Shown here: positions 15,554 to 59,810 of the stretch, one piece after another | Position numbering within the stretch: position 1 is the first letter of the stretch | Layout: each line of letters begins with the position of its first letter | From: Raillietiella orientalis | Lineage: Eukaryota | Reading direction: 5' to 3' | Assembly (NCBI GenBank): GCA_036172245.1 | Contig: JAYWIR010000067.1 | Coordinates: 434,001-498,000 of the forward strand | DNA length: 64,000 nucleotides | Program-made: the position numbers and the translations under genes | Notes under the pieces: generated by a model | Database searches by the model: none | The model's input: the letters and a program-made list of their open reading frames with translations, nothing else | Told to the model about the DNA's origin: nothing

Positions 15554-15573
15554 GAATCCGATCGGGTGTAGCG

Positions 15574-18458: not shown

Positions 18459-18493
<35 letters not shown>

Positions 18494-33697: not shown

Positions 33698-33726
33698 CTG
33701 ATCCTTCCCCAAGGAATCGGGGCCCA

Positions 33727-34459: not shown

Positions 34460-37400
34460 GTGCACCTCAGGGGACAATGAATAAATAGGCAGGAAGAAAA
34501 AGAGATTCCTTGTCACAATCGCCGCACCAATCCGCAGTCTGCGTGCGATGCAGATGGCGTCCTCCGGGACTTTCACGATGGGAAGTTGTGGTACAGGCGC
34601 CATCGTTGCGAACTCGATGCACGCGTTCCTTCCCTCCTTGCCTACGTACCTCCTGCGTGCTCCGGGGATGCCACGACCCTCCTCTCGCAACGCAGGATTG
34701 CCAGGCGGCGAAAAAAGCTAGTTCCGCGGATTCCGTTTGTTCTTGTCTACGGCATGCGCGCGAACGCTCCCAGCTCCCCGCAGATGGTGCATTTCTGGTT
34801 TGTACCGGGGATTCTGACGGCAGAAAGACAGCTGGCTGCCTCTGGATGGAACACCGGAACTCTGATCCCAAACCCTGATTTTGGATTTATGAAAATTTTG
34901 TAGCTCTCCCGGATCTCTTCTTTTTTGAGCCTCCCGATGGCAAACATGATCTCGCCAATCGTGGAAGGTTCGTTAAGGCTTCTGGTCTCCACAGAGGCAC
35001 CTTCCAGCAGCGGAAGCAGCGAGAAATCCATCTCCGGGAGTGCCATGGCGTACAGAGAGGAATAAACCTCACGCACAAGGCTTCGGGTGTCCCATCGGAC
35101 CAAGTGCTTCCGAGACCCATCGTCCAGAAAACTTTCTGATTCTTACGAAACACTCCTCCAAAGCCTGGAAGCAAAGGGCTTCGAGGGTGCTGTTTGCAGA
35201 ACTCTCGAATGAATCCTCCCAAACGTTCCCAGTCTTCGCGTGTCCGCATGTCAAACCTGAGCACTAACCCACAATTCCTCCGACAGACGCCACGCATAAG
35301 AAGAGAGATCTATGTCGAGCGGTCTAATCTCCAGCCCTATTCAAGCGTGAACACCCTTGAATAGGGACAATGTAGACCTCGACATGCCTCTCCTAGGCAC
35401 CCGTGATCACAGGTGTTGGTCGAGAAACACATGGGCGATCCTGTTCACGAAACCGGTGCCCCTGCCTCGCAGGTTCCTCGCATGCACTGATGCGCACACC
35501 ATGTTGTCGGAGTCTCGCTCTCCGCTTGGTGCACCTGGCAGCAGGTAGACGCTGAAGTTTTTCACCGGGTCACACCGGGGACCAGTGAAAAACAAAGTTC
35601 CCAATCAAGTCAAAAAACAAAAAGGAGGGGTTCATTAGCAAGCAGGTTAGGAGAACCGTGAGATCGGGAGGACAAAGGGACAACCAAAAAAGAAAAAAAG
35701 CGGGGAAGGCGCAGGGATCTTTGGTGACGCTGCGTACCCACCGCAGTACAAAAAAAAAGTCCCCCAAAACTTCCGGGGCTCATAGAGACGGGAGATGAGA
35801 TAGAAAACAAAATAAATGCAACAAAATAAAGGACAAGGATCGCCGGATTCGCCGTTCTAAACCGTCCATCAACTGGCGGTGGACGCCGGTGATCTCCTTT
35901 GCATCCTCTCCATGTGGTGGCCACATCGCTATGGTGTGGCCACTTTGCAGTCCCTCCGATGTAAATGGCTTCCATGCAGGCAACTTCGCTCTGCGGTGAT
36001 TTTCTGCAGCTGTTGAGCCCAAACGATGGCGCGAATGCATCCCATGGTTGCAAAAATAGCGCACGTGGAGAGGCTTCTAAGAGCAAAGAACTCCGCGACA
36101 CGTCTCCTGCGGTATCCTGTGGGTGCAAGAGTGCTGTTGCCAAACTCCTCCACAGTTCCTGGAAAGCACTGCAGTCCAAAAGCATGTGTGGAATTGACGT
36201 CCCCGACTCGCACCAGCCACAGTTCGGAGGTGCAACCCCTTTGGAAACTGGATGCCGTCGCTGGTTACAACGGAATCCAAACTGGATCACCCGCAGTACA
36301 GCCTATTTGCAGGCGAGGGGAAACAACGCACTGTGCGTCAAGTGTGAAGGAATTTCTTGTTCTACGGAAGCAAGGAGTCTTGTAGCCAAAGTACGCAGAG
36401 TGGCAACATCCGTCAGCTTCTTCATCTTCCTGCCGCAATGAAATCTAGTTTTTTCCAAGATGGCGCAGAAAAACTCCCTCCTTGTCTGTTGGCTGCTGTC
36501 AACGCCTGTCTAGAGAGCAGATAGCGCTACGGCGAAAGGTGTGGACGGCAGAGTTGAAAGCTCCATTGTGTCCTGCAGTACCTCTCCCAACAGTTGTTTT
36601 AGAATATGTCGCGAGGGCAAAGATGTTCAGGGCACATTCACTAAGACACATCCTTACACCAACATCAAATCAAGAACGTGCTCCAGGCAAACCCACAGTT
36701 AATTTGCTTGGGTGAAGCCGGGCAGTAAAGCTCAGCCGTGAACAGATCCAGACACTTGAAACATGTTGGATAATGCAGGATGCGTTCCCTGCGATCCTCC
36801 ATCCATTTGAGATAAACGGTCCGCGATGTGGAGCGATTTCGCGGCCACCCTCCTTCGCCCCCCGCTTTCTGTGCGCCCCGCTCCTCCCCAAATCAGGACA
36901 CGGACAAGGGGCCTCAACAGCAACCTGTTGCCAAGCGTTGTGGTTTCTCGAACGACAGGAGTTTCACAAATGGGCTTCCAGTAGTGAGGCGAGTTGCCAC
37001 AGCGAAAGTCGATTCACATCATCATCTAATGGGTGCCCGACCTTAACGAGAGCAGTCCTTCTTTGCCGTCGAATCTTCGAAGGGGGGTGCGTGCAATCGT
37101 ACACATTAAGGAAGTCCTTTGTTTGGCCCAGAGAGCCATCATCCGGAGCTGCACTGGCAGCACAGTTCTCTCGAGCGTCAGGATGTCACAGCCAGCAGCA
37201 GGTCGAGGAGACGCTAAATCCATTAGGCAAACCTTAGATGTTCGAGGTTTTTCCCAAGCGTTTCTTAGTAGGCGCTCAGCCACCTGATTCGCCTCTTAGG
37301 GGGATCGACAAGTAAAAATCAGAAGGCGGAGAAGAAGGGCTATAACTGCGTTCCCAATGAATGCCATTCCAGCAATTAACACTAGCTACGAACAGACGGA

Positions 37401-38420
37401 CAGACTACGAACTACTAAAAATCAATTCTGTCTATTGAAGGCAGTCTGACCACGTTTCGGCAGAGACAAAGACACCCAACAGAACGTCAAGGTACTTCAA
37501 TTGCCTGCGTTTGGGGATTCCGAAACGGATACAGTCGGTCTGCTTCTCCAGCGACGCACTAACAGGAACGACCGCACTCTTACTCCTTGTAAGCTCAAGC
37601 CTGATCCCTGACGGATCAGCTCGAATTAATCAAAGAGTCTGGACGCCGGGGTGGACATAGTTAGTAAAAAAAAGCAGGTAGTCAGAATAGACCGCAACGG
37701 CCGGCGTTTTTGGACAGGGGCTTGGCAGGTCAGCCAGCATCAGCCTGTACTCTCTTAGCACCAACTCGAAGTAGATGCTGAAAGGCAAAAGGCTTAGGCT
37801 GTACCCCTGCAGGATGCTTCTACGTACGGCAATACCGTACACATGGAAGCCTCTGAAAAAATAAAATTTAAAATCCATCTAATAAACATCAATTTTTCAA
37901 CCACATTACATACTACACACTAACACCACCATACTCCAGGAATTGTTGCTTTGCCCACGCATCCAAAAGTTCTTCGGGGGGCACACTCAAATGTTCACTC
38001 CACCGAAGGAGTCCCTTCGGGATGATGCGAGGCGTGGCGGCGTCTGCCAGCTCGCAAGTCCTCCAGCCGCCTATGGGTGGTGTTGTTCCTGCGATGGTGC
38101 AGGCGACCTCCCACCTCGCCGGCAGGCAGCTGTCCTCTCTTGCCCTGAGGGCTGACAGCGCGTCGGCGAGGGGCGTGACGGCCAGGCGAGTTCACTTATC
38201 CTGGCTGTTGCACACCTCATCCACCGTGCAGTACGGGGAGAGGTGAGCGCAACGGAGTTCCAGAAGCGAAACATCCTGCTGCTTTGCCCACGCATGCAAC
38301 GATTCCTGCCTCCAGTCGTCAAAGTTCGTTGGGCGGCAGGAGATCCAGTCGTGGACTGCCAGGAGCCGGTAGAGTGGTTTCAACGGGAAACCGAAGCTTC
38401 TCGTGGCGCGCACAGGGGCG
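34460..38420 (-). mobile_element. Mosaic of decayed L1/Tx1-like ORF2 fragments
   Basis: Endonuclease/linker remnant at 34880-35556 (HVFLDQHL, REFCKQHP, YSSLYA). A 3' end with stem-loop + AAAAA at ~35558-35582. Zinc finger CGWCESGTSIPHMLLDC at ~36180-36225. RT remnant QGYSLSLLPF..YSD at 37630-37870. Segment 37940-38400 is similar to 52230-52660. Confidence 0.8.
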
Positions 38421-39990
38421 GGAAAAACAGAAAAAAAAACAGAAAAAGAAAAACGCCTGGCAGACAATGTTTTTGGGGAGGGGAGGGAAGGGAAGGGATC
38501 ATGGTGCTCCGTGAAGAGGCCTCTGCATCCGGATTTGGATGCGAACAAGTGCCGACTAATGTTTGCTAAGTCGGCGCCAACGGGAAGCCTTCTGCAAAGA
38601 GATGGTTGCCCAGTGCATGGCATTCCGTCTTCTCCGTCTTCTCCTTGTTGCAGTCCATTTGTCCGAAATTCCGCGTATGCAACAGAGCACTGCTACACAT
38701 CCGGCGGCTGGCATGGCGTCCCACATCAGGAGGCGTCGAAAATGTTTTTCAGGTTGCCCACTGGAATGTTTAGGATCGAAGACAGTCGATCCCATATACG
38801 ACGGAGGGCAACGCACTCGATTATTAAGTAAGGGAAGGTCTCCCTTTCCCCGCACTCTGCACAGTGGGCATCCACACTCCTTAAAGTCCAGTTGAAGAGG
38901 CGTGCTCCGCAAAGGAGTTCCCAATGGAGCACTAGCGGAGCCGTTTTTTGCCACTGCAGGGGGAGGGTGCAGTTGTTCCAAGACGCTGGGGGCCACTTCA
39001 CCTCCTCCGGAGGCAAATCGCGCAGCTCGCCCCAGCGCACAAGTCCATTCGGCGGGACAATCGGGGTTGTAGCGTCCGCTAGTTCTTGAGACGTCCACGC
39101 CTTCATACATTTTTCCCTGCCTCCTATGAGGCAGGGCACTTCACACGATGCCTCCTCTTGGCTGTCCGTGGCTTCCCTGAGGGAGGGCAGCACGGGGGCA
39201 ATTGGTGTGAAGGGAGCCCACACCAATTGCAAACGATCTCCTGCAGGAGCCGGCCAGCGTACCTGCCTCAACGGAGTCAGGAAAAGTGCACATCACTGGA
39301 GCAGTTCATTTTAGCCCACGCGGAAACGGACTCCTGTAGCCAGGTAGTCCAGTCCGCGGGGATGCAGGAGATCCACGGATTGTCCCTCACCAGGGCAACC
39401 GAGTCTACTAGCTGAAACTCACAATGGATCAGACTGCGGTCGTTGGCTACTAGGATTGAGGTCAATCCGTAGCAGCCGGTTGCCCTGTGGCCAAGGAGTC
39501 TTGTAGGCTCACACCAGGGTGCTGTCCAATATTTAGCCACCAAGGCAAGTTTCCTGAATTGGAGCTGACGCTCCATGCGCTACAACATCAGGAGACCAAG
39601 TCCACCGTCCCTGCGTGGAGCGCACAACTCTTTAAGTCGGACGCGGGACCTCCGGTTGCCCCAAAGGACTTTCCTGATGAGGCCCCTTGTCCGTGTCCTC
39701 ATTTGGGGAGGGTAGGGCACACAAAAAGTAGGTGGCGAAGAAGGGGGTCCGCAAAAGCGTTCCACACCGAGGCCCGTTCTTGCGAGCAAATCTTGCCGCC
39801 CCGGAACGGGCCGATCGCCAACTCCAACTTTTGAAGACGGTCGGACCAGCCTTCTGCAGTGCAGAAGTCCCCCAACGGAACAACAAGGTACATGATGTAC
39901 CCTCACGTGAGGATCCCCAAGCGGATCAAGTCTGACCGTCCTGCCCGCGACGAGTCCGAGAATATGATCGACGACTTCGTACTGTTCCCT
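38420..39990 (-). mobile_element. L1/Tx1-like ORF2 3' half (post-RT region, CCHC finger, T-rich 3' UTR)
   Basis: YL.VPLG, ERASVWNAF, LCAPRRDGGLGL and CAECGERETFPYLIIEC motifs with frameshifts. Confidence 0.85.
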
Positions 39991-42666
39991 GCGTCCTTCT
40001 GGCTAGCGGACGTGTTTTGACATCGTTCCGCGGTCTGGTTAGTGGGAAGCTTTTTGTTGGTATTGTCTGGTGTGTGGGATCGCCGGTGCCCAAGCAGAAA
40101 TGCCTGAGGACACCGCGATGGAAATTAGGGTAGGAGAGGCGACTTGCTCTCCTCCACCTATGGAAGTGGGGGCATCCACCCCCATGGAATCCGGGGTACT
40201 TGCCCCATCGGAATCGGGGGCAACCACCCCTTCGCGACCCTCTTCGCCAGCGGCGAGGAGCTGGAGTGCCGTCGTTGCTGCACCATTCCCGGCTGCAGTA
40301 GCGGAGCAGACTGCCTACAAGGACAGCGGCTACAAACCGTCGCTGATCTACAAGGTAGGCAGTGTGTTCGACGAGAAAATTGCACGCTCCTTTGAAATGG
40401 AGCTGCAAAGATTGAATGTGAGGGAGGAAGACCTCGAGGGCGTCTCCGTCCTTAGTGGGGGGCAGCGAGTTGAGCTGACTTGCAGAGAGGCAAGTCTGGC
40501 GCAGCGCCTGCTAAACACCCCCATTACGATGGACGGCCGCAGGATCTTCCCTGTGACGGGGACCGCTCCGTCGTGGTCCACCTCACGGGCGTATCACTCC
40601 GAGTGGACAAAACCAGCGTCCATGAGGAGTTGTCAAAACACAGTAGTATGCACGCGTATTGGGCCAAACCCAATGTCTTCCGAACGTACGGAAGGCTATT
40701 CAGTGGGATGGCCGCTGCCCGCGTCACACTACCGGAGAATGGTGGGTTTCCCCACAAACTAAATATCGGCGAAGAAAAAGTCGATGTTTGGTACGTGGGA
40801 AAGCCCAAGTATTGTGGCCATTGCGATGCTACAGGGCACTTAAAAAAACGGTGCCCTAACATCCAATGCCACTTATGTGGAAACAAGGGCCACATCCGCA
40901 AGGTGTGCCCAAGACGAGAAATCCCGGTCCCTCCCGCTGCCAAAAAGGCAAAGGGGAAACGGGCGGGAGAGACGAATACCATGAAGCAGGCCGTAAGGAG
41001 CCAGATGCCAGTCCCTAAGCCATCCCAGCAAACGTCGGTTGAGAGCACTCCCGACGACGCTGGCGACGGCGAAGGCTGGCAGACGGTACAGCCCAGAAGA
41101 AAGCCCGGGAGTCCCGAACGAAGCGCGGGGAAAACAAAAACGCAGCGCAAAAAAACGTGCCGCGAAAAACTTCGCGTTTGTTCGGTAAAATTAAAGCGTG
41201 TGGAGGCACTCGATGCCGCCACCGGGGGAACAATCCCCTTCCTCGCGTCCGCCGAAGCCGCGACGGTCGATGGCGAACCCTCTGGGGAAACAGAGGGGGA
41301 ACCGCGCGCCGCGCTCGACGCGATCGAGGAGGCCGCCTTCCAGCAGGCGGTGGAAGAACTCGAGGCAGAACTGCAAGGCCGTGAGACGAAATCGTGGAAA
41401 ACCTTACGAAGGCCGGCCGAGGAAGGCTCCGGAGGCAGGTGATGCCGATCCAGATGCCGGAAGTGCGTCATCCTCAGCGGAGGCGCCACCTAAGAAGACG
41501 GGACGGAAGTCCCAGAATCCCAGGAGGCGCATCCGAACCAACAAGGAGAGGGATGAACCGACACCCGAGGGGGAAGCCGGCAGCGCGGGAGCCGAGGGTG
41601 GGAATCTCTCACTCCCCGACACCGTGCAGCTGGCAACCCCTATGGAGGAGGAATTGCAGGTGGGTGAACCCCCCCTTCCTGTGCACGGCCCTGCCGACGA
41701 TTCGGCCCCCATAGAGGAGGGAGAAGCGGTGCGCGACGCACCCCCTCCTCCTAGCGTCCCGCCTGACAAGGTGGCGGGAGCTCCTTTGCCACTTTCTCAG
41801 GATTAGCACCTGGACTCGCCTATCGCCGTAGGATACGCGTAGCCTGCTGGAACGTCAACGGGCTGCGCGATGACGGCAACAGGCGGGACACGGCCGACAC
41901 CCTGCGTGACTCCGACCTGGCGCTCCTGCAGGAGATCCACGTGATCACCGCGGAGAACGCCCAAGAGATCGAAAGGATCGCAGGGGGTCGTCTGTTTTGG
42001 CAATGCGGCGCTCTCAAAACCTGTGGCGTCGCGTATTTCTTGAAGCCAGCAGTCGACGCCGTCGTCAAGGGCGTCAATAAGGACAAACGCGTTGGCCAGT
42101 TCATCCTCAGGTGGTCCGACTCGATCGAGGGACTAAAGTGTGCGGTCCGAGCGGTGGATGCGGGTACGAGGAACGTTCACGGTTCCTCGAAACCCTGAAG
42201 CGCGACTGGCTGGCTGATACAAACGTACGCAAGGCACATGTGATCGGTGGGGATTTCAACATCCGCCTGCTCTCAGGTGTGCCTTGCGGGCAAAAAGACG
42301 CAGCCAACGAGTTGTGCGCTGCTATGCGCGCGCGCAACTTGTTGGGGGACCTCCGGGAAATGGTCCAAAGCGTCGACCACTTTTTCCTTGACGCCAACCT
42401 GTGCCCAGAGGGAAACTTCCATCGACGCTATCCGACCATTTCTGGTAGATTTTCTAGGTTATGTCTCGCGACAAAGGCCCACCATCCAGAGCGTGGCGTC
42501 TGCCCGGGGACCGGATGCTGATCTCAGGTGCGACGGAACATCTCCGCCGATTCCTGAGAAGCGTCATCTTGCGGAATCTCGCCGACTGCGACCGCATGAA
42601 GGTCTCGATCCGCGAGTTCCGCGAGGAGTTTCTTCTACACCGCCTGCACCGGGGATTTGGTGTTGT
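39990..42666 (+). mobile_element. L1/Tx1-like element, 5' half (ORF1 with two CCHC knuckles plus APE endonuclease), frameshifted
   Basis: ORF1 begins MPEDTAME and contains CGHCDATGHLKKRC and CHLCGNKGHIRKVC. The endonuclease motifs are WNVNG, LQE and GDFN. Frameshifts at ~40560 and ~41420. Confidence 0.9.
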
Positions 42667-44545
42667 CACCCGGGTACGCCCAGGGCGTTTAATTAAAAAC
42701 TCTACATTGCGTGGTACAAGGCCCCACTTACGGCCATAGACACGGGACCTGCCGGTTCGCAGCCCGGCGTGACTCTCCTCGGCAGTCAAAGGGGATGGGG
42801 GAAAAAACAAAAATAAAAATAAAAAATAGAGACAAAAAGAGTTTAGAGGGAGGGGAAGGGATCATTGATCACTGAGAGGAGGATCCATCCATCGAAGGAG
42901 GCCCTCGAGGTCCATCCGAATATTTCCCAGATGGGGCCATCTGGCAGCTCTTCGCATGAAGCGTACTGCATGCTGGATGACGTCCCTTTCGTTCCATTCT
43001 TGCTCTTCGCTGTCGGCATCGCTCCAGGCCGCCACGATGCCTCGGACGCAGCAAAGTGCTGCGACGGCTGCGGCTGGCTGCATGGCGTCCCGCACGAAGA
43101 GGAGCCGGAGAACGTCTTTGGGCGTGCTGACCATAGGGAGCCCGAGGGTCATCCCAAACCGTTCCCGAAGGGGTCGGAGGGCAGCACAATCCACAATAAG
43201 ATGGGGGAGTGATTTCCGCTCCCCGCACCTGAAACATGCAGCATCCACAGCTCCCCTTGTCCAGTGGAAGCGGCGTGCGTTGCAGGGTAAACCCCAGTGC
43301 AACAGCAGCAACGCCGACTCTTGCCACTTAAGGGTCAGGATCCTTGATCCTCTTGAAACCGGGGGCCACTTCAGGTCATCCGACCGGATGCCGAGCAGCT
43401 CGCCCCATCTTTTTAATCCACTCGGCTGGACGGTTAGGGTCGTGGCGTCCGCCAGCTCTACCATGGTCCAGTCGCTGATCAACTTCTCTCTGCCTGAGAT
43501 TCGGCAGGAGACTTGCCACCTCGGCGTCCGGCTGCCGTGAAGCGCCTTCCTCAGGAAGGGCATCGCCGTAACAAGCGGGGTCCTCTCCGCCCACGTGCAG
43601 CTCGCGGGAGATTCAAGTATTTCACGCAGAGTGCGGCGGGCGTAGAAACCGATTCGCAGGCAGTTCCATGTCTCGTGGTTGCTCTCAATATCTTCGCCTA
43701 CGTGCCAGCGGTCTCCTCCAGCCATGCGGAGGAGTTGGCGGGGCCACACACCATCCAGGCGGTCTCCTTTGTCAAGGTGGACATGCGTCCATGGAGCAGG
43801 CAGCATCTTTGTATCTTCCGGCAGGAGCACAGAAGATAAGACGCAAGTCCTTGCGTCCTGGAGACACGGCTGGCAAGAAGGCGGAGTGGAACACATCAAG
43901 GGGTGCTCCACATCTTCTCTGCGATGGCTATGGTGCGCCAACGCAGTTGGATTTCCAAGCGCTCCAGCGTCAGGAGACTAAGAGAGTCGTCCCGACGCGG
44001 AGCGCATAAGTTCTTCAGAGGCACTCGGGGCCTCCCTTTGCCCCAAAGGGCGATGCGAAGGAAGTCCTTCGTCCCCTTTTTCAAAAGTAGGGGGACAAGC
44101 AAACAAAAAGCAGGAGGTGGAGAATGGGAACTGCAAACGCGTTCCATACCGTGGCGCGTCCCGGCAAGAGGAACCTGCCTTTAGGAATGGGCGATCACCA
44201 GCTCTACTTTCTGGAAACGACCTGACCAGGCTTCTGACGGGCAGAGGTCCCCCAACGGGACGCCCAGGTGCCTGGCCGTGGGGATCCCTAAACGGATCCA
44301 GTCAGGCCGCCCAACCGACGTCGCACCAACCGCCACCACCAACGACTTTGCCTTGCTCACCCGCAGTCCCGTCCCGCGGCTTAGCATATCGAAGAAATCC
44401 TCGACTGCCGCTGCCGGAGCGCACATGGAAAGCAGGAACAGAAGATCGTTGGCGTACGCTGCTACAGCGGGCGTGCCGGGGCACGAGCTCGGCAAGGCAG
44501 CCAAAGTCGCCCTGTACGCTCTCAGCCCCAACTCGAAGCAGGTGC
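42667..44545 (-). mobile_element. L1/Tx1-like 3' part (RT end, C-terminus, 3' UTR with terminal stem-loop), antisense to its neighbour
   Basis: AYANDLL (degenerate YADD), CFRCGERKSLPHLIVDC, and ATTAAA + hairpin at 42667-42693. Confidence 0.88.
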
Positions 44546-44549
44546 TAGA

Positions 44550-46592
44550 GAGCATCTGCTTCGAGCCACATCCAAGTGGGGCCATCGTCACGCCCTCAGG
44601 AATTGGGCGGCTCCCTGGATGGCACCCTTGTCGCGTGGTCCTCCCGTAGCCGTGCTCCATGCGTCGACGATCCCGCGAAGGCAGCACAAGGCTGCTATCG
44701 AGGCCGCTGGCCGAAGGGTGTCGGCAAAGAAGAGGGCTTTTAATGCGTTCCTAAGGTTGCCGCAGGGGATACCGATGGCCGCGGCAAAGCAAAACCAAAG
44801 CGACCGAAAGCAACAGAATCCACAAGGAGGTGGGGAGGGACTCCCGTTCCCCACACCTAACACAATTTGGGTTCACCGCTCCCCAGGTCCAGTGATGTCG
44901 ATGGGCGTTGCAGGGGAGTCCCCAGTGCTGCAACAGTAGAGTCGGCTTCTGCCATTCAAAGGGGAAGGTGGAAGTGTTCATGAGCACCGGGAGCCACTTC
45001 AGATGCTCAATCGGAACATCGAGCAGCGCGTCCCAGCGCAGAAGTCCATTGGGAGGCATACTCGGGGTCGCAGCGTCAGTCAGCTGACCCGTCTTCCACT
45101 CTCCTTGCTTCTTCTCCTTTCCGGAGATGGTTACTTCAACCTCCCACTTTGCCGCAACATCACTGTCCAGATCTTCCATTGGGGAGGCCAGCGCAGCAGT
45201 GAGGGGCGTTCTTCCTGACCACGCTCGCTTCTTCGGATCCTCCAGGATCTCTCGGAACGTGCAACTTCTGTAGCACCCAAACAGAAACCGTCGTTCGTGT
45301 TGGGCGCGTTGCATGCCGCACTGTGTCCACGTGCGAACGGTTTCCTGCAACCAGGCACTAACGTTTGCGGGGCGACAGGTGATCCATCCTTGGTTTTTCC
45401 GAACCAAGGCAGCCACCCTCCGCAGCTGTAGCCCACATCGGATGATGCGGGAGCGATGGAGTGAAAGAAAGGACGTGAGTCCCATCTTCCCGGTGGCTTC
45501 CTTGACGAGGAGGGACGCACCAGCAGGTGCACCACAACTCCGGCACAGCGGCCAACATCCGGAACTGGAGCTAAAGCTCCAGCCGCTCCAACGTCAGGAG
45601 ACCGAGACCGCCGTCCCGGTGTGAAGCGCACAAGTCCTTAAGGGGGACTCGGGCCCTCCCGTTGCCCAAAGGGCGATACGGAGGAGCTTCTTCGTAAACT
45701 TTTTGATCCTCTCTGTGGGGGTACAAACAAAAAGCAGGGAACGGGGGAGAGGAGCCGCGAACGTGTTGCAAACCGCGGCCCGTTCAGGCAGGAAAAACCT
45801 GCCGCCTCGGAACGGGCCGATCTCGGACTCAACTTTTTGGAGGCAGCCGGACCACGCTTCCACAAGGGAATAGTCCCCCAACGGTACACCAAGGTACTTA
45901 AAGTACCTCACAGTGGGGATCCCCAAACGAACCCAGTCCTGCTGCCCAGCCCACGCCGCACCGACTGGCATCTCGGACGACTTCGCCCTGTTCACCGTAA
46001 GTCCGGTTCCCCGATGCAGCAGGTCGAAGAACTCCTCGACCGCCGAAGGCGGGGTGGACATAGGGAGCAGAAGCAGAAGTTCGTCCGCATATGCTGAAGC
46101 CGCAGGCGTACCGGCACAGTCGTGCGGCAGGTGCGCCAGAGTTCCCCTGTACGCTCTCAGTACCAACTCAAAGTAGGTGCTGAAGAGCAAGGGACTCAGG
46201 CTGTCTCCCTGCCGTATCTCACGCCGCACCGGCACGCCGTGCACGGTTAGCCCGCTGAAAGAAACGTTGATGAGCGCGTCGCGCCAGCTGGAGAGCAGAT
46301 AGGTCAATAATGAGTCCGGGAAGCCCAAGCGTTCCAGAAGCTCCAGCAGGAGATTCTGGTCGACACTGTCGAATGCTTCCCCACCCGACCATCCGACCCA
46401 TGGCTGACGGACTCACTGGAATTCCAGCTGCGCATCAAGCCACTTTCATGTTAGAGCTCTAGCCAGGTGGAAGCGTGGAACAGGTTCGCCGCCATGCTTC
46501 GCCTGGGAACAGCATATGTCTGTTCCGGGCTGATGAAGGCGTTTGCAACCCGTCCCAGACGCTGTGCCCAAACCTTCGCTTGCAACTTGGCG
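44550..46592 (-). mobile_element. L1/Tx1-like RT and C-terminal fragment
   Basis: ISPEQTYAVP, AFDSVDQ, RQGDSLSPLLF, YADELL, FKYLGVPLG and CVRCGERESLP motifs. Confidence 0.88.
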
Positions 46593-49202: not shown

Positions 49203-51521
49203 GAGTTCTGCGAGCAGTTCCCCATGCCTCGCCAGCCGCGGAGATTTAAGGATAGGGTCCGTAACGAAAGGCCGTATTTGTATGCCCGTGGTTACGCGAG
49301 GACCCCCAAACTCCGTCGCCTGGCAGAGTACCGAACCCGGGCCGAGGGCCAAGCCGGAAAATCCTGGTCGGCCAGCAAGCTGGCCGACCAGGGCCGGGAG
49401 AACTCGGTCCCGGCCACAATACGGCACCTCGAGTGGAGATTTTATTCCTCCTTCTACGCCAGGGCAACCCCGGAGCGGGTGACCTCGCGGTTCCTGCTAC
49501 CGGACGGAGACCCGGCAATAGAGGATGAGGAGAAGGAAAGCCTCGACGAGCCCTTTACGACCGGAGGTATTCTCTCAGGGATTAAAAGTCTCAAGAGGCG
49601 TAAGGAGCCAGAGGAGGACGGCCTGCCCTCAGAGTTCATCCAGTGCTTCTCAGAAGAGCTGGCACCCCTGGTGCTTCAGTTGACAAGACTGATCCGAGAC
49701 GAAGGCGATGTTCCCGCCTCGTTCCGGTCAGCTAGGATGAGGCTCCTTCCTAAGGGAGGAGACCTCCGTAAGTTGAACAACTGGCGTCCGATCACAGTCG
49801 TGAACACGGACGTCAAGTTGGTCGCGAAACTGTGGGCTGCGCGGCTCGGGCAGGTAGCCGAATCCGTAATTAGCCCGGAGCAGACTTACGCTGTTCCCGG
49901 ACGAAGTATGGAGGCTAACCTTTTCTTCGCCAGCACATGGTTTCATGTGCAAGGCGAAGTCAAGGAGCTTAAAAGATCTCTCGGCAACCCCAATTTAAGG
50001 GTGACCTCTGGTCAGGGTGGGGACATCCAGGCGGGCAAGGGTGTCCTAGCGATCGTAGTCGATCTTCATAAAGCTTTCGATTGCGTGGACCAGGAGCTTC
50101 TCCTGGAGCTTCTGCATCGCATGGGCTTCCCACCTACCTTAACGGCGTACCTGCGCTCCTACTGGCGCGCCGCGCTGACAAATATCTGTTTCAGAGGACA
50201 GAACGTGTACGGCGTGCCGGTGCACCGCGGGATTCGGCAGGGAGATAGCCTCAGTCCCCTGCTCTTTAGTACCTACATCGAGTTGGTGCTGAGAGCTTAC
50301 ACGATGACTTTGGCTGCCTTGCCAAACTCGTGCCCCAGCACGCCTGCCGTGTCCGCCTATGCCGACGATCTGCTGCTCCTGCTCCCAATGTCCACCCCGG
50401 CAACGGCAGTCGAATATTTCGTCGACCTGCTAAGACGTGGGACAGGGCTACGGGTCAACAGGGCAAAATCGTCGATGGTGGCAGTTGGAGCGACGTGGGT
50501 AGGACGGCCTACTGGATCCGCCTGGGGATCCCGACGGGCACACATCTGAAGTACCTTGGCGTTCCGCTGGGGGACTTCTGCCCGTCAGAAGCATGGTCAG
50601 GCCGTCTTCAGAAAGTGGATTTGGCGATCCGCCCGTTCCTGGAGGGCAAGTTCCACTTGCCGGAACGGGCCACAGTATGGAACGCGTTCGCGGCTCCCAT
50701 CCTCCGCCCCCTGCTCTTTGTGTGCCCCGTCCCCCGTGACTTGAAGAAGAGGACAAAAGACCTTCTTCGCATCGCCCTCTGGGGCAGCGGGAGGCCTCGT
50801 GCGCCTCTTAAGGACATATGCGCTCTGCGTCGGGACGGAGGTCTTGGCCTCCTGACGCTGGAGCGCGTGGAGAAGCAGCTGCGGTGGCGAACTCTCGCCA
50901 TCGCAGCGAAGATGTGGAGCACCCCTTGGTGCACTCCGGCCCGCCTCCTGGCCAGCCGTGTGTCCCGGTGCGAGGGACTCGCGTCTTTTCTTCTGTGCCC
51001 CGGCCGAAAGATCAGAAGATGCGGCCTACAGCTCGGACGCATGGCATCGTTGGCCATGGAGAACAGCTGGATGGTTTGCTGACACGCCAACTCCTCCGCC
51101 TGGCTGGAGGAGAACATCGGAACGTGGGCAGTGGTGAACCAGAGAAGCCACGTAACGTGGAATCGTCTCCGGTGCGGCCCCTACGCCCGCTGCACTCTGA
51201 GGAATCTCCTGGAGAATCCAGCTAGAAGCACGTGGGCAGAGACAACCTGCCTGGCTACGGCGCTGCCCTTCCTGAGGAGGGCGCTTCACAGCAGTCGGAC
51301 GCCAAGGTGGCAAGTCTCCTGCAGCATCGAGGGACGCGAGAAGAGAATGAGCGGCTGGACCATGGGTAAACTGGCGGACGCCACGACCCCGAGCGTCCAG
51401 CCGCGAGGACTAAGAAGATGGGGCGAGCTGCTGGCCATCCCTACGGATGTGCTGAAGTGGCCCCGCTTCTTCAGGAATCCAGGATCCTGCCCCTTAAGTG
51501 GCAAGAGTCGGCGTTGCTGTT

Positions 51522-54500
51522 TATCACCTGGGTGCGCCGGGGCGTTTATTACAAACTATCCGGGAACAAAGTTCCCGGACAAAGGACATAGAGTAACGAA
51601 GGGGGTGGGATCCCCGACACGCAGGTCGGTATGCCGAAAGTCCGGAACGGGAGGGAGGGGACCACAAATACACCGTATAGAAAAAATAAAAATGAAGATA
51701 TGGAGGGCAGGGGACAGGGGTCTTTGGTTCTGCCGTTCCTTCCTTTCAGAACCGGCGATGGATGCCGGCGATCTCCTTCCTCACGCTCTCTGGAAGATGC
51801 GCCCACTCGGCTGCCGACGACATGTTTGTGCTGGCTAATCCGGTGGGCTGACGAAGGATGGCCAACTTCTCCAGTTGTCGGTGGGCCTTGTCGATGGCGC
51901 GAATGCAACACACGGTTGCAACAACAGCACCTAAGGACAGGCCGTCTAGCGTGAAGAAGCGGCGCATCAAATCCCTCACGGTGTCCCCCTGGTGCAGGAG
52001 AGCTGAGGCCAGCCTCCGATACAGTCCTAGGACGGCACCGTAGTCCAGAAACAGGTGCGGGATCGTTTCCACTTTTCCGCACCTTTTACAGTTTGGGGAG
52101 ACAACTCCCCCGTAAAGACGGTGCGTCCGCTGGTTGGAGTGAAAACCCCAATGCACCAGCATGATGACGTCCTGCTTCCACGAAAGGGGGAACATCGAAG
52201 TGTTCAAACAGGAGGGAGGGACCACAAGTTCTTCGGGGTTCACACTCAAGTTTTCACTCCACCGAAGGAGTCCTTTCGAGATTTGGCGCGGCGTGGCGGC
52301 GTCTGCCAGCTCGCAAGTCCTCCAGCCGCCAATAGGTCGCGTTGTTCCTGCGATGCTGCAGGAGACCTCCCATCAGGCCGGTTCGCAACTGTCATCTCTT
52401 GCCCTGAGGGCTGACAGCGCGTCGGCGAGGAGGGTGACGGCCAGGCGGGTCCACTTCTCCTAGCTGTTGCACACCTCATCCACCGTGCAGTACGGGGAGA
52501 GGTTAGCGCAACGGAGATCCAGGAGTGAAACATCCTGGTGCATTGCCCAGCCATGCAACAGTTCCTGCCGCCAGGATTCAAAGTTCGTTGCGCGACAGCA
52601 GATCCATGCGAGGGCTGCCAGGAGAAGGTAGAGTGGTTTCAACGGAAAACCGAAACTACACCTAGAGCGTTCCGTGTGCGGACGCAGCGAAGGAAGTCCA
52701 TCGATGCCGGTGCAGCGCCGCAGGAGCAGGCGCGCGGGAGCGCACCAGGGAGTGGACCAAAGGTTGGCGCACAGGGCCAACATCCAAAGCTGCACCTGCA
52801 GCTCGATTCTCTCCAGCGTCAGGATGCCTAAACCAGCATCCCAACGCGGAGCCGCCAAGTCTTTGAGGCGTATCCTGGACCTCGCAGGTCCCCACAGAGC
52901 GTTCCTCTACAGGCTGTTCGCCTTGAGCTTGGCCGAATTGGGGGATGGGCAAACAAAAGGAAGGAGACGTAAGAGGGGGGCAACGAAGGTGTTCCATATC
53001 GCGGCCCGCTCCGGCAGGACGAACCTGCCATGGTGGAACGGGATCAGAGCACTCGTAGCCTTCCGAAGGCAGTCCGACCACACTTCCACTGAGCTGATTT
53101 TCCCCAGCGGAACGCCCAGATATTGGATGGACGAAGTGGTCGGGATCCCCAGGCGGATCCAGTCGGACTGCCTCTCCCACGCCGCACTATAGGTACGACC
53201 ACGCTCTTGCTCCGTTTTACGCTCATGCCCGCTCCCCGGGGAATCAGCTCAAAGAAATCCTCGAGACTGGATGCCTGGGTGGTCATGGGTAAAAGGAGAA
53301 GCAGGTCGTCAGCATAGGCTGCCACGGACGGCGTTCCTGGACAAGAGCTCGGCAGGTTGGCCAGCGTCAGCCTGTACGCCCTCAGCACCAACTCAAAGAA
53401 GATGCTGAAGAGCAACGGGCTTAAGCTGTCGCCCTGCCTGATGCCCCGCCGCACCGGCACGCCGTACACGTGGCAGCCGCTAAAAGAGATGGAAATGAGC
53501 GCGTGGCGCCAGCAAGCGCGCAAATACGCCACGAGGTGCACCGGGAAACCGAGACGTTCCAGGAGCTCTAGCAGGAGATCCTGATTTACGCAATCGAACG
53601 CCTTGCATAGATCTACCGCGACCGCCAAGGCACCCGGCGCTTCCCCAGGCCGAATGCAGCGACGCCCAGCCTGGGCAGCCGCAGATGCGGTTGCCTGGCT
53701 GTCGTGCGCCACGCAACGTTGCAGCTCGAGCCACGTGCGCGCGAAGAACAGGTTCGCCTCCATGGTCCGCCCGGGAACAGCGTAAGACTGCTCCGGACTT
53801 ACCACGGATCCAGCGATCCTGCCTAGGCGCGCGACCCACAGCCTGGAGAACAACTTGACGTCCGCATTCACCAAGGTGATGGGACGCCAGTTGCTTAAAT
53901 GGCGCATGTCTCCGCCTTTCGGCAACAGACGCACCCTTGCTGAGCGAAACGAGGCCGGGACATTCCCCGTCTCTCGCATCAGCGCAGAAAGCCTCAGCAC
54001 CAGGGGGATGAGTTCCGCCGCGAAGCACTGGAAGAACTCCGCAGGCAAACCATCCTCACCTGGCGCCTTGCGCTTCTTGAGGCCCGCTATGGCGGAAGAC
54101 ACTTCTTCCGCCGTGAAGGGCAAGTCAAGAGTGGCGCGTTCCTCCTCGTCGAACGCAGGGGAATCCGCCGGCAGAAGCAGCTCGGAGAGACTGCGTTCCG
54201 TCGGCTCCCTAGCATACAACGAGGAGTAGTAGCGCTTTAGGAGGCGGCGAACTTCGGCAGCGCCCGAGCACTCCAGGCCCTGGTCGTCGAGCAGACAAGC
54301 CGCTCCTGACTGCCAGACCTGGCGCTCGGCCTTGGCCTTGTACTCCGCAAGGTACCGGACGTCCGGGCATCGGGAGAATTGGCGGGCCTGCAGAAACTCT
54401 CTGCTGTTGGCCACGCCTTCCCCGAAGCCACGGGGAAGCAGGCGCAAGGGGAACCGGCTGCAGAACTCGCGGACCGATCTTTTCAGATCGTCCCAGTCCA

Positions 54501-56195
54501 CGAGCTCTCGAACGGCAAAGGTCCGGAGATGCTGGCGGAGGTGCTCCGCAGCCACCGGATTTCTCAACCAGTCGGCCGGCAACCTCCAGACGTGCGTCGG
54601 AGGGCCCTTGCCAGGCGGGAGTAGCTCAAACTCCAGCCTGTAGTGGTCGGAAAGCTCGGACGGCACGGGACCTCTTCGACCCACCCGACAATGCAGGTGA
54701 TCGTCGAGGAACACATGGTCCGGCAAAGCACGCATTCCGGGATCGTCGGCCAGCAAATTCGAGGCGTGCACCGACGCGCACACCTCGTTCACCAGCCGTT
54801 TCTCCCGGCGACGGTGAGACTCCTCCGATAGCGCGTGGACGTTGAAGTCCCCGGCTACGAGGTGAGCCACGTCGGGGCCGGAGTTGCTGAGCCAGCGGTC
54901 GCGCAGTCTCTCGAAAAACTCCAGTTTCTCGGTGTGACGCGCGGAGCCGCTCGGCGCGTACACGTTCGTGACGACAAGGTTGATCGATTCGGACCACTTG
55001 AGAACAAGTTGGCCCACACGACCTTCCTCGTCGAAACAAACGCTCCGCACCGCTCCCGCCACCCTGCCCCGGACAAGGAATGCGACTCCGCAGGTATTCT
55101 GGGAGCCTGACCTCCAATGGAGCGTCCCGCCTGCGCGAACTTGCAGATCGGCCGCTTGCTGCTCGGAGAGTGCGTGAATCTCCTGCAGAAGGGCCAGATC
55201 GAAGTCGCGCAAGACGTTGGCAACCAATCGCCTCTTCTCGTTGTCCTGCAGCCCGTTGACGTTCCAACAGGCCACTCGGACGCGACGGGAAGAAGCGAGA
55301 CCGCGCATTGCTGCTACGGACATGGAGGTGCGTTCCTCGCCCCGTCCAGCGAGGCATCAGCCGGGAGCACGGCGGATGAGGTAGCGCAAGCGCTTCCTGT
55401 CCCCGCCGCGCCGCTCGCGGCCGGCTCGGTGGAGTCGAGGACCATTGCCTCGGGCTCCGAGGAGCATCGGGAACCGTTCCCGGCATCAGGCTCTTGCCTG
55501 GCAAGTTTTGGCTTGCGCGCAGCCCTGGCCTTGACCGGGGCTTGGCGAGCCTTAGCGCTGCCCTCGGACTCCACCTCGGAGTCCGAATTGCGCGCGCGCG
55601 GCGGGCGTTTCGCCTGCCGCTTTTTTTGCTGGCAGCCAGGAGCTGGTCCAGCACTCTTAGAGGGTGCCTTCGTCGCCGATCCCCCTTTCGGGCTCACGGC
55701 TTCGGCAGCTCCCCTCTCGCCGCGGGTGTTTGCGGCGGCGCGCGCGGCGGCAGGAGGCATTATCTTGCGCCTTCCTTGGCGCGCGGGGCTGCCTCTTCAC
55801 CCCGCCTACCTTTTTGATCGGGAAGTGGGAAGGATCGCGCGGTTTGCGCTCCTTCTTCCTTCCCCCAACAAAGGTCCAGCCATCCTCGCCGCCTTCCGGT
55901 TTGCCTCGGTTGGGCGCGAGGGCTTCCAGGGTCCTTCGCATCCTTTCCAAGGCCTCGGATACGGCGGTGGAGGCCAGTGTCTCCTTCGCCACGTCTGCCT
56001 TTTGCACCTCCTTACCGGAAGGTGCGGGCAGAGTGGCGGGATTCTCGGAGGTCGCGCGAGGCTTTTCGGCCTTTGCTGGCGTTCGGCCCGCCGTGGCCGG
56101 CTTGCCTGTCGCGGGCAAAGGGGCGCGCGACCCCTTTTTCGACGCTACGGTGGACTTCCCGGGCGTGCCACCGCTATTTCGCTCCGGAGCGAGAG
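51522..56195 (-). mobile_element. Nested 4.67-kb L1/Tx1-like LINE (ORF1 3' part plus full-length but disrupted ORF2, 55323-51746) with a 13-bp TSD
   Basis: Perfect TSD CGGCGTTGCTGTT at 51509-51521 and 56196-56208. ORF2 has APE motifs (WNVNG, QE, NVYAP, GDFN, SDH), RT motifs (KAPGEDG, NWRPITL, DLCKAFD, QGDSLSP, YADD) and a C-terminal CKRCG..ETIPHLFL finger. There is a frameshift at ~53185 and several stops. The ORF2 ATG overlaps the end of ORF1 by 10 nt. Confidence 0.95.
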
Positions 56196-56854
56196 CGGCG
56201 TTGCTGTTGTTGCATTGGGGTTTACCCTGCAACCCACGCCTCTCCCACTGGACAAGAGGAGTTGTGGATCCTGCGTGTGTCAGGTGCGGAGAGCAGGAAT
56301 CGCTCTCCCACCTTATTGTGGACTGTGTTGCCCTCCGTCCCCTTTGGGAACGGTTTGGGACGACCCTCGGTCTCCCTACGGGCAGTTCCCCTAGAGACGT
56401 TCTTCGGCCCCTCTTCGTGAAGGACGCCCTGCAGCCAGCCGCAGCTCTCGCAGCCTTGTGCTGCGTCCGAGGCATCGTGGCGACATGGAGCGACACCAAC
56501 AAGGAAGGAGTGGGTCAACACGCGAGGGATGTCATCCCATATGCCCAACGCTTCTTGCGGAGAGCTGCTGGGTGGCCCCAACTAAGGAATATACGGATGG
56601 ACCTCGAGGGCTTCCTTCAACGGATGGGCCCTCCTCTCAGCGAACAGTGATCCCTTCCCTGCCCCCCAACCTCTTTTGTTCGTTTGTGTTTTATTTTTAC
56701 TTTTGTTTTTTCCCCATCCCCTTTCGCTGCCGGGGAGTGCCACGCTGGGCTGCGTCCCGGCGTCCCGGTAGGTCCCGTGCATAAGGCCGTGAGCGGGGCC
56801 TGGTACCGCAATTGTAGAGTTTTTATTGATAAACGCCCCGGGCGTACCCGGGTG

Positions 56855-59370
56855 GCAACACCAAATCCCCGGGGCAGGCGGTGCAAAGGGAAATCCTCGC
56901 AGAACTCGCGGACCGAGACCTTCATGCGGTCCCAGTCTTCGAGGTTGCGGAGGATGACGCCTCTCAGGAACTGACGGAGATGTTCCGCCGCACCGGAGAT
57001 GCGCGTCCAGTCCCCTGGCATACGCCACGCCCTGGATGGTGGTCCTTTGTCGCATGGCATAATCTCGATTATCAACCGGAAGTGGTCCGATAGCGTCGAC
57101 GGAAGTTTCCCTCGTCTGCCGACCCGTGGGCACAGGTCGGCGTCAAGGAAGACGTGGTCTACGCTTTGGGCCATTTCCGGTAGGTCCCCCAAGTTGCGCG
57201 TACGCATAGCGGCGCACAACTCGTTGGTTGCGTCTTTTTGGCTGCAAGGCACACCTGAGAGCAGGCGGATGTTGAAATCCCCACCGATCACATGTGCCTT
57301 GCGTACGTTTGTATCCGCCAGCCAGTCGCGCTTCAGGGTTTCGAGGAACCGGGAACGTTCCCCGTACCCGCGTCCTCCGCTCGGAGCGTACACATTAGTC
57401 ACGACAAGGTGGATCGAGTTGGACCACCTAAGGATAAGCTGGCCAACCCGACTGTCCTTGTCGAATCGTACGTCCTTGACGAAGGAAGCGACTGCTGTCT
57501 TCATAAAAAAGGCGACGCCACAGGTATTGCGAGCGCCGCATTGCCAAAACAGACGACCCCCTGCGATCCTTTCGATCTCTTGGGCGTTCTCCGCGGTGAT
57601 CACGTGGATCTCCTGCAGGAGCGCCAGGTCGGAGTCACGCAGGGTGTCGGCCGTGTCCCGCCTGTTGCCGTCATCGCGCAGCCCGTTGACGTTCCAGCAG
57701 GCTACGCGTATCCTACGGCGATAGGCGAGTCCAGGTGCTAATCCTGAGAAAGTGGCAAAGGAGCTCCCGCCACCTTGTCAGGCGGGACGCTAGGAGGAGG
57801 GGGTGCGTCGCGCACCGCTTCTCCCTCCTCTATGGGGGCCGAATCGTCGGCAGGGCCGTGCACAGGAAGGGGGGGTTCACCCACCTGCAATTCCTCCTCC
57901 ATAGGGGTTGCCAGCTGCACGGTGTCGGGGAGTGAGAGATTCCCACCCTCGGCTCCCGCGCTGCCGGCTTCCCCCTCGGGTGTCGGTTCATCCCTCTCCT
58001 TGTTGGTTCGGATGCGCCTCCTGGGATTCTGGGACTTGCGTCCCGTCTTCTTAGGTGGCGCCTTCGCTGAGGATGACGCACTTCCGGCATCTGGATCGGC
58101 ATCACCTGCCTCCGGAGCCTTCCTCGGCCGGCCTTCGTAAGGTTTTCCACGATTTCGTCTCACGGCCTTGCAGTTCTGCCTCGAGTTCTTCCACCGCCTG
58201 CTGGAAGGCGGCCTCCTCGATCGCGTCGAGCGCGGCGCGCGGTTCCCCCTCTGTTTCCCCAGAGGGTTCGCCATCGACCGTCGCGGCTTCGGCGGACGCG
58301 AGGAAGGGGATTGTTCCCCCGGTGGCGGCATCGAGTGCCTCCACACGCTTTAATTTTACCGAACAAACGCGAAGTTTTTCGCGGCACGTTTTTTTGCGCT
58401 GCGTTTTTGTTTTCCCCGCGCTTCGTTCGGGACTCCCGGGCTTTCTTCTGGGCTGTACCGTCTGCCAGCCTTCGCCGTCGCCAGCGTCGTCGGGAGTGCT
58501 CTCAACCGACGTTTGCTGGGATGGCTTAGGGACTGGCATCTGGCTCCTTACGGCCTGCTTCATGGTATTCGTCTCTCCCGCCCGTTTCCCCTTTGCCTTT
58601 TTGGCAGCGGGAGGGACCGGGATTTCTCGTCTTGGGCACACCTTGCGGATGTGGCCCTTGTTTCCACATAAGTGGCATTGGATGTTAGGGCACCGTTTTT
58701 TTAAGTGCCCTGTAGCATCGCAATGGCCACAATACTTGGGCTTTCCCACGTACCAAACATCGACTTTTTCTTCGCCGATATTTAGTTTGTGGGGAAACCC
58801 ACCATTCTCCGGTAGTGTGACGCGGGCAGCGGCCATCCCACTGAATAGCCTTCCGTACGTTCGGAAGACATTGGGTTTGGCCCAATACGCGTGCACACTA
58901 CTATGCTTCGACAACTCCTCATGGACGCTGGTTTTGTCCATTCGGAGTGATACGCCAGTGAGGTGGACCACGACGGAGCGGTCCTCCGTCACAGGGAAGA
59001 TCCTGCGGCCGTCCACCGTAATAGGGGTGTTCAGCAGTCGCTGCGCCATACTTGCCTCTTTGCATGTCAGCTCAACTCGCTGGCCCCCACTAAGGACGGA
59101 TAGGCCTAAAAGGTCTTCCTCCCTCACGTTCAGCCTTTGGAGCTCCATTTCGAAGGAGCGTGCAATTTTTTCATCAAATATACTGCCTACCTTATAGATC
59201 AGCGACGGTTTGTAGCCGCTGTCCTTGTAGGCAGTCTGCTCCGCTACTGCATCCGGGGATGGTGCAGCAACGACGTCACTCCAACTCCTCGCCAATGGCG
59301 AAGAGGGTCGCGAAGGGGCGGTTTTCCCCGATTCCGATGGGGCAAGTGCTTCGGATTCCGTGGGGAAGTG
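56855..59370 (-). mobile_element. L1/Tx1-like element, 5' half (397-aa open ORF1 segment plus endonuclease); inverted counterpart of 39990-42666
   Basis: Same two CCHC knuckles, and TNVYAP, GDFN and SDH endonuclease motifs. Over the core, ORF coordinates mirror the plus-strand copy with a constant sum of 99544. Confidence 0.92.
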
Positions 59371-59810
59371 TAGATATTAACTGTGTAGGATGCAGGGTTC
59401 TGAAATTTTTCCCGCACGTAATCATCGAGTGTGTTGTTCAACGTCCTGTGTGGAATCGACTGTCGTCGATGGACGACCCAGAGGTCATTTTCCTATGGCT
59501 CCTGAAGCGCGATTCTTTGCCAGCAACCGGGTGTGCAGCAGTTGTCTGTTGCATACGCGGAATCCTGGACAAATGCACTGCGTACACGAGGGTTCAGAAG
59601 ATGCGGAATGTCATACACTGAGCAGCCATCTGCGTTTAGGTTTGCCGATGGCGCTGGCTAAGTTCATCCCGACGGGCAGTTGTAGACTTCCAACGTTGGA
59701 TGCAGAGAGTCCCTGCCGACGATCTGTGATCGTTTCCCTTCCATCCGCTTTCAGTGAAACATTGTTTTCTCCTTGTGTTTCCGTCTTGTTTTGCTTTCCC
59801 CCCCTCTCCC
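59371..59810 (+). mobile_element. Decayed LINE ORF2 C-terminus and 3' UTR
   Basis: CVGC...PHVIIEC and VCCIRGI motifs plus a T-rich tail; related to the minus-strand segment 38420-38880. Confidence 0.7.

Follow-up and report, generated by a model that had tools for sequence, protein, structure and literature searches.

Twofold occurrence of one junction between two LINE lineages in a nest of L1-like elements of Raillietiella orientalis

Introduction

Dual-strand clusters of PIWI-interacting RNAs (piRNAs) in Drosophila, such as 42AB, contain many classes of transposable elements (TEs) in mixture, and nests which consist of a single family of long interspersed nuclear elements (LINEs) are commonly taken for passive graveyards or for piRNA traps. 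Such a single-family nest is present in a stretch of 64,000 nucleotides from Raillietiella orientalis (assembly GCA_036172245.1, contig JAYWIR010000067.1, positions 434,001 to 498,000 of the forward strand; the whole stretch is called the window below, with position 1 as its first letter). It is formed almost wholly by copies of one apparently L1-like LINE family, and the same junction between two lineages of this family occurs in it twice. Like 42AB, the island is a dense nest of fragments of many TE lineages, in both orientations and in a probably arthropod-like genome; it differs in that a single LINE family is involved.

Transposons which target other transposons have been described. Tx1L of Xenopus laevis inserts at one site of another transposon, the DNA transposon Tx1D (PMC1950540). 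The locus reported here is similar to Tx1L, since LINE copies are found at one defined site inside another TE, the L1-like order of domains is the same, and the 3' junctions of independent copies are identical; in contrast, the target here would be a coding site in a sister LINE lineage, which is entered in antisense orientation, there are only two instances, and neither a regular target site duplication (TSD) nor a continuation of the target is seen. Zepp and ZeppL, which are L1-clade LINEs of the green algae Chlorella, Coccomyxa and Chlamydomonas, target existing copies (PMC8226300). They share with the present locus the insertion into existing copies and the single-family nested clusters, rich in 5'-truncated 3' parts; Zepp clusters are described as tandem arrays of 3' ends at centromeric or telomeric positions, whereas in the window both orientations occur, the junctions lie inside open reading frames (ORFs), one copy is situated outside the cluster, and the host is animal-like.

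Recurrent Junction at Site S'

The two composites which carry the junction consist of four copies, designated by letters:

A, 46597-56859 (end approximate), plus strand: full-length copy, ~4.8 kb without the copies D and C that lie in it; canonical 3' end joined to G at S'.
E, 42662-44554 (start approximate), minus strand: relative of the A lineage, from about A coordinate 2886 to the end; canonical 3' end joined to B at S'.
B, 40010-42661, plus strand: 5' half with canonical 5' end, ORF1 (zf-CCHC) and apurinic/apyrimidinic-type endonuclease (APE) domain; broken at S'.
G, 56860-59368 (start approximate), minus strand: 5' half, B positions 171-2656, with an open ORF1 of 424 aa and an open APE frame; broken at S'.

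The segment 40180-44554, in which B is followed by E, has its inverted homologue in 50260-51521 plus 56196-59365, where the 3' part of A is followed by G. Homology runs through the junction, and the partners are joined at the same nucleotide in B|E and in A|G. In both cases an A/E-lineage copy is connected by its canonical 3' end, in antisense orientation, with the sense strand of ORF2 in a B/G-lineage copy, directly after ...CCGGGGATTTGGT(GTTG); the junctions read ...GGGGATTTGGTGTTG|TCACCCGGG in B and ...GGGGATTTGGTGTTG|CCACCCGGG in G. S' falls in the codons ..P-R-G-F-G-V, where the APE domain of B/G ORF2 ends; four nucleotides at the join are ambiguous.

Thus, the nucleotide and the antisense orientation are the same for both A/E-lineage copies (2/2) and both B/G-lineage copies (2/2) of the window. 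Independent copies with identical 3' junction, target and orientation, by which a site-specific LINE is recognized, were found for the A/E lineage only (2/2). Three copies of other lineages which cover S', namely A, C and J, possess the homologous site intact and with a differing sequence; the copy D was inserted into A ~35-55 nt upstream of the position homologous to S'. According to our own arithmetic, two independent insertions would hit the same base of a 4.8-kb element in the same orientation by chance in about 1 in 10^4 cases. The 5' junctions of both A and E are irregular, with no regular TSD and no target continuation.

Two explanations of the junction were rejected. Twin priming requires the inverted part to be located 5' of the sense 3' part within one element, but here a 3' end is situated at the inversion junction. 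Homogenization of the junction alone does not agree with the flanks, which are 76-85% identical within 100 bp and thus no closer than elsewhere.

Evidence on the Independence of the Joined Copies

Between A and E, the ratio of nonsynonymous to synonymous substitution rates (dN/dS, omega; method NG86) was 0.30, 0.31 and 0.36 in three segments when the true frame was used, with dS values of 0.43-0.57, versus 0.86-1.25 in the wrong frames. Differences were present at 105 of 327 third codon positions and at 57 of 331 sites for each of positions 1 and 2. The GC content of third positions was only modestly elevated (0.70-0.74, compared to ~0.55 at the other positions), and transitions were about as frequent as transversions (near 1:1). 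Neutral simulations under three mutation-biased models, which included rising GC and CpG mutation bias, did not reach an omega of ≤ 0.313 in any of 300 runs per model; a fourth, extreme neutral model gave a minimum of 0.34 in 200 runs. Following polarization with three further copies (F, C and H, listed below), the third-position excess was evident on both branches, with 25/18/49 changes by codon position for A and 36/40/56 for E, while 45 of the 269 differences could not be assigned to a branch. Lesions were private: A has one frameshift (~50510) and one stop (51080-51082), E has one stop and four deletions of 1 nt, and none is common to both. The sequences thus indicate that A and E are independent retrotransposition products of separately evolving active lineages and not a decayed duplication, because dN/dS is ~0.3, the third-position excess exists on both branches and common lesions are absent. 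A transfer of the insertion from arm to arm by gene conversion was rejected as well, since it predicts neutral divergence between A and E, and selective divergence was seen instead.

The divergence of B and G is patchy: a stretch of 1345 bp differs by 0.1% and one of 100 bp by 1%, the remainder by 9-16%. The near-identical core (B 40651-41995 versus G 57550-58900; 2 differences in 1345 sites) would appear to stem from recent gene conversion between the inverted copies, or possibly from over-polishing. Omega for B and G was 0.40, versus 0.74 and 1.06 in the wrong frames, and was reached in 0, 2 and 8 of 300 neutral simulations under the three models; B and G, too, may be independent copies, which is less clear than for A and E. 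Their divergence in the unconverted patches (9-16%) is well below the third-position divergence of A and E (32%), and completeness is reciprocal: B possesses the canonical 5' end and G lacks 170 nt, while A is full-length and E truncated. Both observations argue against a joint duplication or transduction of the two halves.

For a disrupted copy, G (56620-59376, minus strand) is surprisingly intact, with its ORF1 of 424 aa open and the APE frame open up to the break at A; this is probably linked to the conversion tract.

Proposed Origin of the Composites and Alternatives

The island would have arisen as one L1-like LINE family without poly(A) tail inserted again and again by target-primed reverse transcription, and deletion and gene conversion would have reshaped it afterwards. 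Our preferred reading, which we hold tentatively and with somewhat less than even confidence, is that S' in the ORF2 of B/G-lineage copies is a specific target of the A/E lineage. On two independent occasions, reverse transcription from the 3' end of A/E RNA would have been primed at one and the same nucleotide of the B/G ORF2 sense strand, the insertion being always antisense and splitting the B/G target; either the A/E endonuclease or pairing of the 3' end of the A/E RNA could provide the targeting. The 5' end of E and the 3' end of F would have been joined by a later deletion, which is needed under targeting and under duplication alike. The lineages of C, D, K and P would have no common target and would accumulate here because the island tolerates insertions. 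One may go further and regard A/E as a hyperparasite which recognizes S' in the ORF2 of a competitor (at the link between APE and reverse transcriptase, RT), inactivates this competitor by antisense insertion and gains a harmless landing place, while its own site has diverged and escapes; this extension is possible, although we would be slower to accept it.

Several points weigh against directed insertion. There are only two instances (n = 2), and their composites lie in the same nest in inverted orientation, at a distance of 14 kb, with sequence exchange or mis-polishing between them (2 differences/1345 bp), so that a palindromic duplication is a natural rival. No target continues beyond the 5' ends, since A is followed by F with ~556 nt absent and without TSD, and E by the truncated tail of F in the wrong orientation. 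No target motif is common to the remaining four 3' junctions that could be resolved (C, D, K and P); any specificity would thus be private to one lineage. The evidence for independence of B and G is weak (p ~0-0.03, depending on the model). The earlier note on this DNA had considered self-targeting of the family as a whole; this idea can be retained for the A/E lineage, with both copies at the same nucleotide of S', but not family-wide, as the nick contexts of C, D, K and P resemble neither each other nor S', and P is located in non-LINE DNA.

An unlikely, but serious, alternative is accumulation in a safe haven without any targeting, combined with an inverted (palindromic) segmental duplication: a single A-type insertion in a B/G element would have been copied head-to-head, the centre would have been deleted, whereby E was joined to the tail of F, and the arms would have diverged and been partly converted. 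The inverted composites, 14 kb apart and homologous through the junction, would be expected from such a history, the ~100% identity of 58% of the B/G arm would represent arm-to-arm exchange, the central deletion would account for the odd E|F join, and the lack of a target motif at the other insertions would fit. Divergence of the arms should then be neutral, yet omega of A and E is ~0.3 on both branches and was matched by 0/300 simulations in each of three models; A and E have no lesions in common, and each arm is more complete at a different end. One event would also date both pairs of copies, although A and E (21% raw, 32% at third positions) are far more divergent than B and G (0-16%). The identical junction could be reconciled with independent retrotransposition of A and E if read-through transcription (3' transduction) had propagated the composite of an A/E element and an antisense B/G 5' half as a whole, with the junction inherited from a master copy. 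We consider this improbable: the passenger should have attained at least the synonymous divergence of A and E (~32% raw), compared to the 0-16% found between B and G, which moreover show some coding constraint; the segment ends exactly at the canonical 5' end of B in one copy and 170 nt short of it in the other; and the conserved 3' terminal motif would suggest that reverse transcription starts there and not 2.5 kb downstream.

The 1345 bp with 2 differences, inside arms which are otherwise 9-21% diverged, could point to an assembly artefact, i.e., the left composite or its core might have arisen from the right one by collapse, duplication or over-polishing. Elsewhere the arms differ by hundreds of substitutions and by indels, and the flanks differ also, so that at most the core would be artefactual, not the composite; we give this explanation very little credence. 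The island could perhaps be a dual-strand piRNA-source locus, i.e., a transposon trap, which would be compatible with any structural history. Fragments of many lineages on both strands are the usual anatomy of piRNA clusters, and they are present here (8 pieces on the minus strand, 5 on the plus strand) in what is probably an animal host close to arthropods, whose DCAF1-like ORF is 57-58% identical to proteins of ostracods, Daphnia and insects. The same anatomy fits any heterochromatic TE island, however, and the flanking ORFs examined are host-like, not viral; we are doubtful about a trap.

Composition of the Nest

Between 34915 and ~59856, 13 pieces of one non-LTR (long terminal repeat) retrotransposon family with APE and RT domains were mapped by self-BLAST, BLASTN versus the copies A, B and C, tblastx, and tblastn, for which 46 external and 9 in-window proteins served as queries. 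Eight are on the minus strand (J, K/I, M, H, E, F, C and G) and five on the plus strand (L, B, A, D and N); their order is J, K/I, L, M, H, B, E, F, A (with D and C inside), G and N. External LINE proteins matched 15 stretches by tblastn, on both strands, all of them within 34915-57717. The nest which the earlier note had placed at 34460-59810, with at least ten pieces in both orientations, is therefore real, except that LINE homology was detected only from 34915 onwards. Its right end at ~59856 is a guess from the resemblance of a motif in N to a 3' end. In addition to A, B, E and G the pieces are:

J, 34915-35557, minus strand: reaches from the last part of APE into the first part of RT, unbroken across S/S'; found by tblastn with the APE of G, the ORF2 of C and P0001.
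K/I, 35558-37858, minus strand: 5'-truncated element, with RT in I (37032-37858) and with the C-terminal part and the 3' untranslated region (UTR) in K (35558 to ~36450).
L, 36814-36937, plus strand: short RT fragment, 82% identical to the reverse complement of 39671-39778.
M, 37962-38431, minus strand: fragment with 87% identity to C (C coordinates 3526-3961).
H, 38432-39986, minus strand: 5'-truncated piece from RT to 3' UTR, without roughly the last 140 nt.
F, 44570-46594, minus strand: piece from RT to C-terminal part, A coordinates ~2436-4530; 3'-truncated; 85% identical to P.
D, 48440-49202, plus strand: 5'-truncated insertion in A at site S, with TSD.
C, 51522-56195, minus strand: near-full-length young insertion in A, with TSD and an intact APE+RT ORF of 770 aa.
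N, 59369-59856, plus strand: diverged piece with C-terminal part and 3' sequence; its zf-RVT region is 70% identical to that of H.
P, 9328-10252 (end approximate), minus strand: 5'-truncated family member outside the nest, with a 15/15 TSD at 9313-9327 and 10271-10285.

The pieces represent at least eight lineages with pairwise identities of 44-92%: {A,E}, {B,G}, {F,P}, {H,N}, {C,M}, D, K, I and J, where the pairing of C and M was taken from BLASTN versus copy C. Self-BLAST yielded 36 pairs of at least 100 bp (of 37 found), and every one of the 36 touched LINE pieces. Integrase, transposase, gag and protease domains were not found by Pfam in 73 ORFs of ≥ 150 aa ending beyond 30000, and neither the Pfam scan of ORFs nor self-BLAST gave a signal of an LTR element or DNA transposon in the nest; the earlier note had likewise recognized none among the pieces. 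Scans of the whole window for tRNA and Rfam genes gave 0 genes, and hence no small-RNA-gene target of the kind used by several elements of the Tx1 group.

The insertions of D and C into A, which the earlier note had deduced, are confirmed by their TSDs and its coordinates are right. Read from the sequence, the TSD of D (48419-48439 and 49203-49223) is 20/21 identical and that of C (51509-51521 and 56196-56208) 13/13; removal of D and of C restores the continuity of A, as judged against G and E. The 5' start of A is the same as that of B. As had also been proposed, A lies physically between two minus-strand pieces, F (44570-46594) and G (~56860-59368). Nesting within one F-G element is less clear, since F starts at about A coordinate 2436 and G ends at ~1880, so that roughly 556 nt are absent between them, and the ends of A show no TSD; an insertion of A into one F-G element, with a deletion of ~556 bp, is plausible. 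The RT/3' piece at 44550-46592 of the earlier note corresponds to F, which lacks its 3' end; E (~42662-44554) is an element of its own.

Six 3' junctions could be resolved in the window, and five of them (those of D, C, A, E and K) abut LINE sequence, the exception being P; as in Zepp, new copies were thus inserted into existing copies of the same family. P is situated in non-LINE, GC-rich DNA, 5 kb upstream of the DCAF1-like ORF, with ~18 nt of G-rich filler at its 5' junction. The nick contexts on the primer strand, ...GCAGAACTC| for D, ...GTTGCTGTT| for C and ...GCACACGA| for P, have no motif in common. K ends with ...GGTGAAAAA at 35558, where it abuts the right end of J in the same orientation and reads on into ...CTTCAGCG of J; this context, too, has no motif in common with those of C, D and P.

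In the left third of the nest (J to H) there are breaks which simple nesting leaves unexplained. K/I holds ~240 extra nt, L among them, and ~100 nt of AT-rich non-LINE filler (37859-37961) separate I from M. The possibility that M and K are one element, split with a 14-bp TSD, was rejected, since K reaches further upstream than this model permits. At the right end, a location of the 170 nt absent from G beyond N was rejected because no similarity was seen by eye in 59830-60100.

Domains, Relatives and 3' Ends of the Family

In copy C, the ORF of 770 aa (53047-55356, minus strand) contains APE (PF03372, 1.1e-16) and RT (PF00078, 9.8e-19) according to Pfam; Exo_endo_phos (APE) was also detected in 56620-57777 (minus strand), and RVT_1 (RT) in 49200-50546 (plus strand) and 45597-46412 (minus strand). 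The zf-RVT domain (PF13966), which many database relatives carry, scored 18-18.8 bits in two copies, below the cut-off of 27.5 bits, and the Pfam match of the ORF1 zinc knuckle (zf-CCHC) was weak. Of 46 database matches to the 770-aa ORF, one relative was 64% identical and the rest ≤ 30%. The closest solved structure to ORF2 was human L1 ORF2p (6.2e-43), while R2 proteins gave 2.9e-17 or worse, a comparison which covers solved structures in the PDB and is not a clade phylogeny. Since the best solved relative is human L1 ORF2p rather than R2, assignment of the family as L1-like (L1/Tx1 group) is supported.

ORF1 of A (46647-47459, plus strand; 271 aa) is open, but without ~860 nt, including the CCHC knuckle, which are present in B (40043-41439, plus strand) and in G; the A/E lineage may have a shorter ORF1.

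A poly(A) or A-rich 3' tail is absent. Six 3' ends finish with ...GGTG plus 3-6 nt, directly followed by target DNA, and the six copies end in the common motif ...AAACGYCCC(N)GG..ACCC(R)GGTG plus 3-6 nt. Some L1 lineages are likewise without poly(A) tail (PMC3472496). Compared with the stringent-type L1 and L2 LINEs, which are recognized by a motif at the 3' terminus, the family is similar in the lack of poly(A) and in the conserved 3' terminal sequence, here in 6 copies; it differs in that the consensus fold of the six 3' ends gave a predicted stem of 5 bp with 0 covarying or compensatory pairs, which leaves a structural 3' signal unsupported. A scan of metagenomes with the 3' motif yielded 49 loci; 0 of the 49 had similarity to this LINE by BLASTN or TBLASTN, and they are thus chance matches of the motif.

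Flanking Genes and Composition of the Window

The window has no N. Its base composition is very uneven: the GC content amounts to 33-39% for 1-8 kb, to 48-67% for 8-30 kb and to 50-65% within the nest, with an abrupt shift between 1-8000 (33-39%) and 8000-30000 (56-67%) and a strong positive GC skew of up to 0.43 across 10-28 kb.

The ORF 15523-20133 (plus strand) is DCAF1/mahjong-like (atlas score 0.99, 240/256 features in common); the identities with ostracod, Daphnia and insect proteins mentioned above refer to its LisH/WD40 part. It is uninterrupted over 1537 aa, intronless and of ~63% GC, 7 kb from the region of 33% GC with the RPAP3-like exon, and could represent either a host gene without introns or a retrocopy that has stayed intact. 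RPAP3_C and TPR domains were identified in the ORF 4178-5068 (minus strand), for which a search for relatives gave 1 weak match, and in the ORF 22554-23807 (plus strand) the Pfam match to ANAPC5 was exactly at the cut-off. A permissive Pfam rescan of the flank ORFs gave nothing above cut-offs except ANAPC5. Immediately left of the nest, the ORF 32696-33805 (minus strand; 370 aa, 44-46% GC) had no Pfam family above cut-off and no usable atlas match.

Virus-like ORFs adjacent to the nest, which the earlier note had taken as fitting a trap, were not corroborated: viral domains were found neither in 146 ORFs of ≥ 150 aa nor in the permissive rescan, which comprised 17 ORFs, and neighbours which were checked look DCAF1-like and ANAPC5-like. 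Judged by these similarities, the nameable neighbours of the nest look like host genes.

Conclusions

The nest itself is ordinary for an animal genome; its noteworthy part is the recurrent junction. If insertion was not directed, the locus would be an ordinary TE island with an old inverted rearrangement. If it was directed to S', a LINE-versus-LINE case would join the short list of transposons which target transposons, i.e., Tx1L into Tx1D and the self-nesting of Zepp. A concrete target sequence for an APE-type endonuclease would then be available, and competition within a family could shape such islands. Should the hyperparasite interpretation also be true, nests of this type would be battlefields between LINE lineages rather than passive graveyards.

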